A model generated the notes under the pieces. The model was not told the DNA's origin and ran no database searches. It was given only the letters and a program-made list of their open reading frames with translations. A stretch of 64,000 nt of DNA from a virus. This document shows positions 4,123 through 12,523 of this stretch, piece by piece. The translations under genes and the position numbers were made by a program. Positions within the stretch are counted from its first letter, which is position 1. Each line of letters starts with the position of its first letter. The stretch lies in IMG/VR virus record IMGVR_UViG_3300044712_002690, positions 96,001-160,000 of that record; one strand, 5' to 3'.

Positions 4123-4137
4123 AACAAATAACCTCTG

Positions 4138-5063: not shown

Positions 5064-5527
5064 AAGTAAGTTATGTAGTTGGTTTAAGAGCCAACTTCAT
5101 TTCTTTCATTTTCTTAGTCTTTTCTTTCCAGCTTAGTGATTTCCAAATCTTTTTAAAAATCCTGTAGTTAATATCTTGTGAGGAAGATATTTTCCTACTA
5201 TACTTCTTAAGTACTTTAGCTGTTTTAGTATTCATTTCATCTCCTTTTTCTTAATGTCTTTATATAAATATCTTTTTTTCATTAAACTTTTTATAATTTT
5301 GTCTGTTTCTTCTATTGTTAAATTAGCTAGTTTAGCAATATTATCGATATAACAAGGTTCACTGTTTTTCCATTTATTTACAATGTTATAAACATCTTGT
5401 TCTATTTTAGAAGAGAACTTTTTATAGCTCACAGCATTCCTTTTATAAGATAGTATACAGGCGGCTTATATTTACAACCTTTGCTCTTACCTTCCGGAAC
5501 GGTTACGCGGACGGCCTGTATACTAAT

Positions 5528-5615
5528 TGGCGGAGGCCGGATTCGAACCGGCGTTACAAGTCTTTCGACGCCGAGGGTTATGAGCCCTCCGAGAAGCCAA
5601 CTCCTCTACTCCGCT
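5528..5615 (-). tRNA. Initiator-type tRNA-fMet(CAU) with 20-nt variable region
   Basis: A1:C72 mismatch, A11:U24 pair, three G-C pairs closing loop CTCATAA; V region GGCGTCGAAAGACTTGTAAC. Confidence 0.85.
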
Positions 5616-5853
5616 CTATATTATAAAATATACCAATTGGTTATATTTTTCTTCTAAAACTTTTTAATAATAGCAATAGTACTATCTGAAATCTCTTTCT
5701 TATCTAAATCAATTGAAAGATTAGCTTCAATTGAAATATCATTACTTATATTTACCAATCCATCTTTAGGCTGATTACTTTGCAGAGATGGATCCTTTCT
5801 TAGATTTTTACCGTTTACTGTTTTAAGCCACTCGAACATATACCTTACCTATG

Positions 5854-5932
5854 CAGGGGTGACACGAGTCGAACGTGCATTGCCGAAGCACGGTTTTGGA
5901 GACCGCTGGGTTAGCCATTACCCTACACCCCT
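5854..5932 (-). tRNA. tRNA-Trp(CCA) with extended variable arm
   Basis: GCGGT-CTCCAAA-ACCGT; V region GC-TTCG-GC-AAT; G73. Confidence 0.9.
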
Positions 5933-5942
5933 AAATATTCTG

Positions 5943-6021
5943 AGCAAGTGATGGGACTCGAACCCACAATGCTTTCGCATCAGTTTGGAAGACTGACAGC
6001 TTACCTTTAGCTTACACTTGC
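5943..6021 (-). tRNA. tRNA-Gly(UCC) with extended variable arm
   Basis: TCAGT-CTTCCAA-ACTGA; V region TGC-GAAA-GCA-TT; U73. Confidence 0.9.
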
Positions 6022-7395: not shown

Positions 7396-7400
7396 GTATG

Positions 7401-7480
7401 TACCACGAGAGGGACTCGAACCCTCACCAATTAAGACTAGTTCCTAAGACTAGCGCGTCTACCAGTTCCGCCATCGTGGC
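7401..7480 (-). tRNA. tRNA-Leu(UAG)
   Basis: CTAGT-CTTAGGA-ACTAG; class II V arm; A73. Confidence 0.95.
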
Positions 7481-10153: not shown

Positions 10154-11767
10154 TTAAATGCCCCCTTTAGCAAATTCAGAAATGATTGATGGTGCCGCTG
10201 AATCGAAGCCGCAAACATCAAGCATTCCAGGGTCTTTAGGATCTGCAATTGTAAATTGAGTTCCTACCATACCTACAACAGCTAATTTAGCATCTTTCAC
10301 ATGAGCGTTTCTATACTTTTTGAGTGCTTGGCTTGGTGCAATTCTTCCGGCCCAAGTCTCATTATCAGTATAGATTGTAAAAATATCAAAGTCTAATTTT
10401 TCTCTAAGAGCCCATTCCATCGGCAATGCACAATCTGTTCCTTCGAATGGAAGACCTGAAATTTTTCTAATAGTTTCATTCAATGACATTCTAGGAGTAA
10501 TGTCAAGGTGCATGAATCTACTAGAGAATCCCATAATCTCATAGTTCTTTTCTGTACGAGCAGTTACCATTGCCATACAAGCAGATGCTTCACGGCAAGT
10601 AACAATACCATACGCTCCAGAAATATAAGCTCCTCCCATTGAACCAGATACGTCAAGTGCAAGTAAGAATCTTTTATCTGTTGGTTCAATATTCTTGAAA
10701 CTAAGATAAAAAGCTTCTTCAAGTGCATCACGTACTTTACCAACAGGCTTCCAAGTAAGACTACCTTTGATTCCATGACCCATTGAATATGTTTTTAATG
10801 CAATGAGAATATTCAATGGATGCAGTCTACTTTTAGAAATATAATCCTGATTAGTTAATTTTCCAACCACACGTTCAATTTCATTAAACTTACCAGGACC
10901 AATTACTCCGATTGCAGTAAGTCTGTTAAGACTTCTCATTAATGCTGTAAGTGGAATATCATCAAGAGCTTCTGTCCAAATACTAACATTATTCTTCAGT
11001 TCAGTAGGCCAAGCATCTTGAGGAATTTTGTATTCCTTAATAAGCTTTTTAGCTTTTGCTACATCAGCTGTTTTAAGTTCATCGAAAGCATTAATAAGTT
11101 TCAATGCTTCTGATTTTTCTCCTTTAACAGCATACTTAAAAAGCTCATTATGAGCATCGGACACTGGTTTTACGTGTGCAGAACGAAGAACATCTCGATG
11201 TGTCCACTGATTTCCTGTTCCTTCAACAGTACGTCCTTGATATTTAACTAGTTGATATTCAAGTTTAGAAGGTTCCATTGCATACCAATTAGAAATAGCT
11301 TTACGTACTGACCTTCCCCAACTTCTCATTGTATCTACATAGTGAGTAAACATGAAAAGATGAGTACCTGTACGACAAATCTTAGGCATAGCCTTTGAGA
11401 TTTCAGTTTTGAAAGAACTATCTTTACAATTAGTAATAAGAGCTGCTAAAAGGAAAATAGCTTGATCATTTTTAGCTGCTCTACCTGAATCAGAAATTTC
11501 TACAATAGTTTCAAGTACACGTTTAGGGTCTTCATCTATACAAGCTAAGCAATTTGAGATGTTTAGCTTAGTAAGATCATTTTGAGTGACATAGTATGTT
11601 CCGCCTTCAGACCCAAGCACAAGGAAGCGTTGGAGCATCTTCCACTTATCTAGTACGAATGTGTACCCACCTGCATTATTCTTTGCCATTTCCTTTTCAC
11701 GACCAGGAATAGGCTGAGATTGAGGTGTTTGTTTAGAATCTTGAAAAGAACTGTAATTGACAGCCAT
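10154..11767 (-). CDS. rsr: Ro60/TROVE-domain RNA-binding protein with vWA domain
   Basis: NNAGGY, LQRFLVLGSEGGTYY, RTGTHLFMF, KYQGR, HPLNIL, and MIDAS DVSGSM, TDCALPM, YTDNETW. Start at ATG 11767 after GAAGGAGG. Confidence 0.95.
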   Translation of the reverse strand: MAVNYSSFQDSKQTPQSQPIPGREKEMAKNNAGGYTFVLDKWKMLQRFLVLGSEGGTYYVTQNDLTKLNISNCLACIDEDPKRVLETIVEISDSGRAAKNDQAIFLLAALITNCKDSSFKTEISKAMPKICRTGTHLFMFTHYVDTMRSWGRSVRKAISNWYAMEPSKLEYQLVKYQGRTVEGTGNQWTHRDVLRSAHVKPVSDAHNELFKYAVKGEKSEALKLINAFDELKTADVAKAKKLIKEYKIPQDAWPTELKNNVSIWTEALDDIPLTALMRSLNRLTAIGVIGPGKFNEIERVVGKLTNQDYISKSRLHPLNILIALKTYSMGHGIKGSLTWKPVGKVRDALEEAFYLSFKNIEPTDKRFLLALDVSGSMGGAYISGAYGIVTCREASACMAMVTARTEKNYEIMGFSSRFMHLDITPRMSLNETIRKISGLPFEGTDCALPMEWALREKLDFDIFTIYTDNETWAGRIAPSQALKKYRNAHVKDAKLAVVGMVGTQFTIADPKDPGMLDVCGFDSAAPSIISEFAKGGI

Positions 11768-11790
11768 TTTGCTGCCTCCTTCATATAAGA

Positions 11791-11852
11791 TTAGGTCAAG
11801 TAGTTGGAATAGGGGAAACATTCTGAAGTTAACCTACCCCATCCGTACCTAA
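11791..11852 (-). ncRNA. Y RNA-like hairpin (unit 4), directly upstream of the Ro60 RBS
   Basis: TAGGTACGGA ... CTTGACCTA bulged helix resembling the Ro-binding site; inner stem TGGGGTAGG/CCTATTCCA. Confidence 0.75.
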
Positions 11853-11859
11853 AACCTTT

Positions 11860-11986
11860 AGGAACAAGGCAGGATTTGAACCTGCGACCAGCCCATTATA
11901 AGTGGTAACCTTTTCTCTTCCGTACCTTTCAGTCAATAGTTTGAAAAAAGGGTTTTAGCTGCTCTACCGCTGAGCTACTTGTTCCT
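11860..11986 (-). ncRNA. tRNA-like Y RNA, YrlA type (unit 3)
   Basis: Acceptor, D (TAGCTCAGCGGTAGAGC) and T (GCAGG-TTCAAAT-CCTGC) arms. The anticodon arm is replaced by a long stem ending TTGACT-GAAA-GGTACGG. Confidence 0.85.
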
Positions 11987-11987
11987 T

Positions 11988-12115
11988 GTCCTAAGGGGAG
12001 GACTTGAACCTCCGACCCGTAGTGTGACCTGTTAACCTTAACCTGCCGTACCTTTCGGTCAAATAATCGGAAAAGGTATTTTAACTACTGCTCTACCAAC
12101 TGAGCTACCTTAGGA
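11988..12115 (-). ncRNA. tRNA-like Y RNA, YrlA type (unit 2)
   Basis: Acceptor TCCTAAGG/CCTTAGGA with D and T arms; long central stem ending TTGACC-GAAA-GGTACGG. Confidence 0.85.
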
Positions 12116-12345: not shown

Positions 12346-12432
12346 CGGGCAGAGTAGGATTTGAACCCACGGAACCTTTAGATCCTCTAGTTTTCAAGAC
12401 TAGCGCCATAAACCAGACTCGGCCATCTGCCC
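12346..12432 (-). tRNA. tRNA-Ser(UGA)
   Basis: CTAGT-CTTGAAA-ACTAG; long V arm; G73. Confidence 0.95.
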
Positions 12433-12436
12433 GATG

Positions 12437-12523
12437 CGGAGAGGAAGAGATTTGAACTCTTATCGGCCTGCCGGCCTACGCAGGTTTAGCAAACCTGTCA
12501 CTTACCAGTTAGTGTACCTCTCC
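12437..12523 (-). tRNA. tRNA-Ser(GCU)
   Basis: CAGGT-TTGCTAA-ACCTG; long V arm; G73. Confidence 0.95.

Follow-up and report, generated by a model that had tools for sequence, protein, structure and literature searches.

Three neighbouring class I tRNA genes of a phage carry tetraloop hairpins in the variable region that may distinguish them from host tRNAs

The stretch of DNA analysed here (the window, 64,000 nucleotides (nt)) comprises bases 96001-160000 of the 178,984-base IMG/VR virus record IMGVR_UViG_3300044712_002690, which has 32% G+C and a CheckV completeness estimate of 76%. Three neighbouring transfer RNA (tRNA) genes of this phage, specifying an initiator-type tRNA(CAU), a tRNA-Trp and a tRNA-Gly, each contain a small hairpin with a tetraloop in the variable region, although a long variable arm is regarded in the textbook view as a fixed mark of bacterial Leu, Ser, Tyr and Sec tRNAs. 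It is highly probable that the products are functional class I tRNAs with inserted arms; the whole statement, namely that they are functional tRNAs of this kind and that the arms are kept for discrimination from host tRNAs, we hold to be evenly balanced. The three genes and their variable regions are the following.

5528-5615, minus strand: initiator-type tRNA(CAU), 88 nt without an encoded CCA (ARAGORN; Rfam RF00005, 46.8 bits; fold)
5553-5572, minus strand: variable region of the initiator tRNA, GGCGUCGAAAGACUUGUAAC, 20 nt (ARAGORN bracket string, pair probabilities, Rfam insertion)
5853-5932, minus strand: tRNA-Trp(CCA), 80 nt as called (ARAGORN; RF00005, 53.2 bits; fold)
5879-5889, minus strand: variable region of tRNA-Trp, GCUUCGGCAAU, 11 nt (fold, pair probabilities)
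5942-6021, minus strand: tRNA-Gly(UCC), 80 nt as called (ARAGORN; RF00005, 60.1 bits; fold)
5968-5979, minus strand: variable region of tRNA-Gly, UGCGAAAGCAUU, 12 nt (fold, pair probabilities)

The minimum-energy folds of all three tRNAs consist of the cloverleaf plus one additional hairpin. In the initiator tRNA the variable region has the layout GGC-GUCGAAAGAC-UUGUAAC, in which the hairpin GUC-GAAA-GAC occupies positions 5560-5569 (pair probabilities 0.97-0.98). The variable region of tRNA-Trp reads GCUUCGGC-AAU, with the hairpin GC-UUCG-GC (pair probability 0.88), and that of tRNA-Gly reads U-GCGAAAGC-AUU, with the hairpin GC-GAAA-GC or, alternatively, a UGC/GCA stem (pair probability 0.98). 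The frame GC-NNNN-GC-A-N-U is common to the Gly and Trp arms, whose loops differ (GAAA and UUCG, respectively). Each of the three tRNAs matched positions 1-71 of the RF00005 model in full and above its gathering score of 29 bits, and in the Rfam alignments the added bases formed a single insertion that follows model positions 44/45 and precedes the last bases of the variable loop. In the remaining 16 class I tRNAs of the cluster the variable region is 3-7 nt long. A 2-base-pair (bp) stem with a GNRA or UNCG cap is expected in a random 8-mer with a probability of ~0.007, and in three in a row with a probability of ~3e-7, and three specific genes among 22 are consecutive with p ~0.013. The three-hairpin pattern exceeds chance. 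An earlier inspection of the letters without database searches (the sequence-only reading) had reported three different stable tetraloop insertions, including a 20-nt variable region in the initiator tRNA. Its hairpin sequences were correct, its limits are identical to the ARAGORN calls, and the insertions proved to be real and non-random by the probabilities given above.

Outside the insertion the three tRNAs have 7-bp acceptor, 5-bp T and 4-bp D stems, with every stem paired, D loops of 7-8 nt, and U8, A14, G18G19, U33 and a canonical T loop. The base that ends the variable region is able to pair as nucleotide 48 with nucleotide 15 (G15-C48 in the initiator tRNA, A15-U48 in tRNA-Trp and in tRNA-Gly), so that the hairpin lies at the site of the class II arm and leaves the core intact. 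Identity elements were compared with those collected in a review (PMC9976931), where the initiator determinants are the absence of a Watson-Crick 1:72 pair, together with G2-C71 and C3-G70 for the formyltransferase. The CAU gene has an A1xC72 mismatch, G2-C71, C3-G70, A11:U24 and A73, and its anticodon stem (GAGGG/CCCUC) contains the three G-C pairs G29-31:C39-41; with these marks the label "initiator-type" of the sequence-only reading holds. The elements found in tRNA-Trp were A1-U72, G2-C71, G3-C70, G4-C69, G5-C68, A9, G73 and the CCA anticodon, and those found in tRNA-Gly were G1-C72, C2-G71, C35, C36 and U73. As far as can be judged from their sequences, the three tRNA genes are genuine and most probably encode working phage tRNAs.

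The sequence-only reading had proposed that the arms block host tRNA-targeting toxins or modifying enzymes, offer a protein docking site or change synthetase identity. The last of these was not supported, given that the cognate identity sets and class I bodies are retained and the 2-3-bp stems are unlike Ser-type arms. Since the 7/5 bodies of class I, the 15-48 pair and the tRNAs' own identity elements are retained, a change of amino acid is unlikely. The wider alternative is that the three tRNAs are substrates of the seryl-, leucyl- or tyrosyl-tRNA synthetase (SerRS, LeuRS, TyrRS), or else decoys, pseudogenes or tRNAs whose arms are spliced out. It could draw on the discriminators, since G73 of tRNA-Trp is also a serine determinant and A73 of the initiator tRNA also a leucine determinant, and on the tRNAs with variable arms and non-cognate anticodons described in other systems (PMC5389517). 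Class I D arms, the 7/5 configuration, full cognate identity sets and intact stems argue against it, as do the arms of 2-3 bp, compared with 4-6 bp in the phage's own Ser tRNAs (minimum-energy folds), and the fact that the three genes are sole copies for their codons. No bulge-helix-bulge intron motif was found around the inserts of the three tRNAs, and we know of no bacterial pathway that removes such a hairpin, which counts against a spliced-out arm. Altogether, we consider this group of explanations most unlikely.

Four specific candidates were rejected. An archaeal-type intron does not agree with simple 2-3-bp hairpins lacking 3-nt bulges and much shorter than the 20-30-nt inserts of the archaeal matches described below, although no search for a splicing endonuclease was made. 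A class II body in which the anticodon has mutated would have a 3-bp D stem and a large D loop, which is at odds with the 4-bp D stems, the 7-8-nt loops and the discriminators A, G and U, which fit Met, Trp and Gly. An allo-tRNA was discarded on the 7/5 branches, instead of 8/4 or 9/3, seen for all three in the ARAGORN calls and Rfam alignments, and a pseudogene on the intact stems and the single copies for these codons. Allo-tRNAs of bacteria and phages as described (PMC5389517) have a 12-bp acceptor branch divided 8/4 or 9/3, Sec-like D arms with a long stem and a probable Ser identity, whereas the window tRNAs are of the 7/5 type and class I with cognate identity sets. The class I bodies and cognate identity sets separate them from the nev-tRNAs of nematodes and other eukaryotes (Hamashima et al. 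2016), which, as cited in PMC5389517, are mischarged tRNAs with class II bodies.

The three genes belong to a minus-strand cluster of 22 tRNA genes located between positions 4137 and 12844 of the window (ARAGORN). All amino acids except Cys are represented in this set, and the 3' CCA is encoded by none of the genes. The three arm-bearing genes are the sole initiator-type CAU, the sole Trp and the sole Gly tRNA of the set. A methionyl-tRNA synthetase (MetRS), a tryptophanyl- or tyrosyl-tRNA synthetase (TrpRS/TyrRS), a formyltransferase and a CCA-adding enzyme of the phage were not found in the 179-kb record and, therefore, the function of these tRNAs would depend on host enzymes.

Compared with the tRNA-fMet of E. 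coli (metY/metZWV type), the window CAU gene shares the mismatched 1:72 position, G2-C71, C3-G70, the purine 11:pyrimidine 24 pair and the three G-C pairs; it differs in having A1xC72 instead of C1xA72, a variable region of 20 nt instead of 5 nt, and no encoded CCA. With the class II tRNAs (Leu, Ser, Tyr and Sec) the three window tRNAs have in common a helix at the same site, 5' of nucleotides 47-48, the conserved 15-48 pair, and arm caps that are mostly tetraloops, GNRA being dominant in both groups. They are unlike class II tRNAs in their class I bodies, their Met, Trp and Gly anticodons and their stems of 2-3 bp. Against the class II criterion of a variable region of more than 10 nt with a 3-7-bp stem, the values were 20 nt and 3 bp for Met, 11 nt and 2 bp for Trp, and 12 nt and 2-3 bp for Gly, which places the stems at or below the lower limit.

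The occurrence of such arms was surveyed with a pattern consisting of the initiator anticodon arm followed by the T arm, the spacer between the two being long enough for 10 or more variable nt. This long-arm initiator pattern was present in 51 IMG/VR contigs, most of them with clear hairpins and many with GNRA loops. In a combined scan for long and normal forms, the long forms amounted to 8/80 among the matches listed, i.e. ~10% of the pattern-matching initiators (confidence interval (CI) 5-19%), and in loci with at least five tRNAs to 7/27 among the matches listed (~26%, CI 12-44%). The long-arm gene was the only initiator in 34 of 35 tRNA-cluster loci. In a five-member family the arm stem has been kept by compensatory changes, while the acceptor stems have diverged at 3/6 aligned pairs. 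The IMG/VR contigs L016, L027 and L045 have initiator-like tRNAs that carry a D-loop hairpin of the GGC-GUAA-GCC type in addition to the long variable region.

Arms were also present on non-initiator class I tRNAs, 44 of them among 964 unique tRNAs from 165 phage loci. Asn, Ile(UAU), Cys, Trp and Pro were the isotypes most often affected; Gly was armed in 1/45, and Gln and Phe in none. Some of the tRNAs counted here, namely the long-arm Ile(UAU), Arg(GCG) and Asp(GUC) tRNAs, may be allo-tRNA-like. Overall, ~10-26% of the initiators but ~3-10% of the other class I phage tRNAs were armed, and other arms were ~3 times more frequent where the initiator of the locus was also armed (p = 0.0009). Adjacency of arm-bearing tRNAs in the clusters of other phages was not significant (16 pairs vs 11.9 expected, p = 0.09), and no common motif was found among the arm sequences across phages. 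One long-arm initiator belongs to a cultured phage: t23 of the Bacteroides phage crAss001, which carries the plain annotation tRNA-Met, is initiator-like, 88 nt long, and has a hairpin region of 20 nt. The window tRNAs resemble t23 and the long-arm initiator and class I tRNAs of other phages in having a short hairpin in the variable region and in being the only copy in the tRNA cluster. They are unlike them in that there is no sequence relationship and that three adjacent genes are armed here, including the rarely armed Gly. The literature searched contained no account of added arms on class I phage tRNAs.

Cellular genomes gave a very different picture. The long-arm initiator pattern had 32 matches in 185,579 cellular species genomes, and these were for the most part 20-30-nt inserts in archaea or remnants of duplicated tRNAs, about two being phage-like. 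For tRNA-Trp, a metagenome scan anchored on the Trp anticodon arm provided a mostly bacterial baseline of 115 genes; with the same anticodon arm as the window gene, 0/115 were armed among the matches listed, all having 3-6 variable nt. The near absence from cellular genomes means that, for the initiator and Trp, arms of this kind were not found to be common in host lineages; had they been common there, this would have spoken against the sequence-only reading. As that reading had implied, long arms on such tRNAs are essentially absent from cells, the cellular comparison covering the initiator and Trp. The survey of phage tRNAs that it had suggested revealed a recurrent, phage-enriched trait, the stem of which has been maintained in another lineage through compensatory changes. 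The trait is common across phages, and cells almost never show it.

In order to place the three arms among related tRNAs, other phage contigs were compared. No close phage relatives were obtained by blastn of the region against GenBank phages, and protein-seeded searches of IMG/VR with the open reading frame (ORF) beside tRNA-Gly and with the Ro60 protein of the phage returned no relatives either. None of ~1,050 tRNAs in 197 loci was a near match to the three tRNAs. For the DNA polymerase of this phage, the best cultured relatives are those of SPO1-like Bacillus phages, at ~30% identity. The polymerase, of family A (G000:C1:73701-76421, plus strand; locus L200:11701-14421), has a fused N-terminal domain of the uracil-DNA-glycosylase superfamily.

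One group of contigs carries Ro60 homologues that are 59-68% identical, and the tRNAs on these contigs are ~65-80% identical to those of the window. The tRNA-Trp of contig L210, whose Ro60 is 63% identical, has an identical anticodon arm, a near-identical acceptor stem with one compensated A-U/G-C pair, and a UUUU variable loop. The tRNA-Gly(UCC) of L219, a contig retrieved with a Gly-Trp tandem pattern, has identical anticodon and T arms and a UUGUU variable loop. Given these similar Trp and Gly tRNAs with 4-5-nt variable loops on other phage contigs, the window arms are derived insertions of 7-8 nt, clean ones relative to the nearest similar tRNAs found. In L208 the variable loops of all three counterparts (initiator-like Met, Trp and Gly) are normal. 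The tRNA-Gln(UUG) of L209 carries a GGGU-UUUU-ACCC arm, and the tRNA-Leu of L208 and L210 (with a class II-type D arm and A73) and the tRNA-Tyr of L204 have 5-nt variable loops without arms.

L209:11533-11621; L208:6843-6918 and 12410-12483; L210:3057-3286; L204:15338-15412: tRNAs showing variable-arm plasticity (Gln, Leu, Tyr)

The variable region also gains and loses arms among the Ro60-related phage contigs. In the window itself, the tRNA-Leu(UAG) gene (7400-7480, minus strand) has just 81 nt and a reduced variable region of 10-12 nt, a further sign of arm instability in this phage. The Gly-Trp tandem pattern recovered the same gene order on nine phage contigs, none of them a close relative. 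Unrelated phage clusters (L211, L213, L214, L215 and L217-L219), all with normal variable loops, repeat the arrangement of Gly(UCC) followed by Trp(CCA), and in L213 (2465-2694) a CAU tRNA comes after Gly-Trp, as in the window.

One important question is whether the arms have a function at all. They could be a tolerated and nearly neutral expansion, in which only compact and stable hairpins survive and are kept by purifying selection without any benefit. The premise would be that phage tRNA genes evolve fast under less constraint, and that an additional helix is compatible with the L shape nowhere but in the variable region. This explanation accounts for the sporadic occurrence of arms among the relatives and on different tRNAs (Gln in L209; Met, Trp and Gly in the window), for the loss of Leu and Tyr arms in the Ro60-related contigs, and for tiny stems with interchangeable loops (GAAA and UUCG) in a single frame. 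It also fits the lack of an enriched partner protein nearby and the tolerance of E. coli LeuRS to variation or loss of the arm (PMC9976931). The very strong enrichment over cells is difficult to reconcile with it, as is the retention, with compensatory changes, of an arm in the family whose acceptor stems have diverged. Neutrality would not lead one to expect the greater frequency of arms on initiators than on other class I tRNAs either, and in compact phage genomes useless bases should be deleted. We regard neutral expansion as a distinct possibility, but a rather doubtful one.

The alternative preferred here is that the arm makes phage tRNAs distinguishable from their host counterparts. A small helix with a very stable tetraloop, inserted just 5' of the nucleotide of the 15-48 pair, would project from the back of the L-shaped tRNA, by analogy with class II tRNAs. 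In that orientation the tRNAs should remain acceptable to MetRS and the formyltransferase, TrpRS and the glycyl-tRNA synthetase of the host, to the initiation and elongation factors and to the ribosome, just as class II tRNAs are. The arm would alter the surface of the tRNA core, and tRNA-binding enzymes outside translation would treat the phage copy unlike the host copy. Candidates for these enzymes would be host defence effectors that cleave or modify tRNAs, or a phage nuclease aimed at host tRNAs. Phage enrichment, long covarying retention, the excess on initiators, the PtuAB precedent described below and the presence of RtcB and Ro60 favour such discrimination. We propose this role by analogy and tentatively, giving it slightly less than an even chance.

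Precedents come from known defence systems. Septu and the PtuAB of retron-Eco7 cleave tRNA-Tyr in the variable arm, and a distinctive variable loop makes the T5 tRNA-Tyr resistant (PMC13096335, PMC11555353); phage tRNAs overcome retron and PARIS defences (PMC11555353; PMC11245113). The window tRNAs would be like the T5 tRNA-Tyr against PtuAB, the T6 tRNA-Tyr against Septu and the PARIS cases, in which the phage tRNA differs from the host copy where the nuclease reads it (for PtuAB, the variable arm). The known escape tRNAs involve substitutions or dosage in the already armed Tyr, or anticodon loops, whereas the window case would represent an arm added to class I tRNAs.

Two further genes of the phage are relevant here. 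An RtcB RNA ligase is encoded outside the window (G000:C1:173356-174375, minus strand; 216 bits to PF01139), and a Ro60 gene lies within it (10154-11821, minus strand; Pfam TROVE and vWA_Ro60), adjoined by repeated modules containing GGUACGG. That the genome encodes both RtcB and Ro60 is suggestive of RNA damage as a source of pressure, and together with the Y-like RNAs they resemble the bacterial rsr-Y RNA-rtcB RNA repair module. Beside Ro60 there are two tRNA-like genes (11861-11984 and 11989-12114, minus strand; RF00005, 46.2 and 52.4 bits) with inserts of ~50-60 nt in the anticodon arm; without its insert, the first has a tRNA-Ile(UAU)-like body.

This neighbourhood raises another explanation, in which the arm serves as a docking handle that marks phage tRNAs for a phage protein or ribonucleoprotein, such as a modification or repair enzyme or the Ro60/Y RNA/RtcB machinery. 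Ro60 with its Y-RNA-like and tRNA-like modules lies 4 kb upstream, RtcB is encoded elsewhere in the genome, and GNRA loops are in general common contact modules. One of the three loops, however, is UUCG and not GNRA, and docking based on sequence is less likely because the Gly and Trp arms combine one frame with different loops. Neither a common arm motif across phages nor an enriched co-located protein family was detected, and Ro60 was not seen in most phages with such arms. A docking function is considered very unlikely.

The insertions might instead act at the DNA level by breaking the site of a homing endonuclease that cuts conserved sequence in tRNA genes, in the way that an intron shields the gene in which it resides, the hairpin merely keeping the tRNA working. 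Genes for GIY-YIG and HNH homing endonucleases are frequent in phage tRNA clusters, including those of this genome and of crAss001, and SegB is active in the tRNA region of T4/T6 (PMC13096335). The GIY-YIG family was nevertheless only weakly and non-significantly commoner near long-arm loci (10/36 vs 5/41, p = 0.15), no endonuclease gene adjoins the three window genes, and the preference for stable tetraloops is explained no better than by other readings. Protection of this type has, in our estimation, a minimal probability.

Several observations weigh against the proposal that the arms are kept for discrimination from host tRNAs. No close relative was found in which the three arms could be compared. 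In the most closely related contigs the Met, Trp and Gly tRNAs are normal, and it is Gln that has an arm, or Leu and Tyr that are without one, a distribution that fits drift as well as an arms race. The 2-3-bp stems of Trp and Gly are far shorter than true class II arms and add little bulk, and no protein family was found to be enriched beside long-arm tRNAs. One strict sequence pattern underlies the frequency estimates, which were made among the matches listed. Finally, we know of no defence nuclease that reads the variable loop of tRNA-fMet, tRNA-Trp or tRNA-Gly.

Two other elements are located next to the three genes.

5654-5839, minus strand: ORF of 61 codons between tRNA-Trp and the initiator tRNA (ORF list; no Pfam match and no family match)
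5455-5525, minus strand: structured element beginning 3 nt past the initiator tRNA

The structured element consists of a 12-bp stem, in which AGUAUACAGGC... is paired with ...GCCUGUAUACU, enclosing an interior of ~48 nt (fold z = -2.1); it had no Rfam match.

The rule that reserves long variable arms for four amino acids is often broken by phages, in which an arm is present on ~10-25% of initiator tRNAs and on several per cent of the remaining class I tRNAs, and almost never by cells. Annotation easily mislabels or overlooks arm-bearing tRNA genes. Natural tRNAs of this design indicate where working tRNAs can take hairpin tags, and the cultured phage crAss001 makes the question of the arm testable. 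If the arms shield phage tRNAs from defence nucleases or toxins, this would be a new and purely structural form of counter-defence, and a hint of host effectors that read the tRNA core. If they are neutral, they would provide a measure of the structural freedom allowed by the translation machinery. In its broadest form, which we put forward as a speculative and on balance unlikely generalization, the mini-arm may be a general means by which phages achieve structural orthogonality to tRNA-directed immunity or to their own weapons against host tRNAs, affecting the initiator first and here Trp and Gly too, with charging and decoding untouched. If this were true, it would define a new class of counter-defence in which the architecture of the RNA, and not point substitutions or proteins, is the basis.

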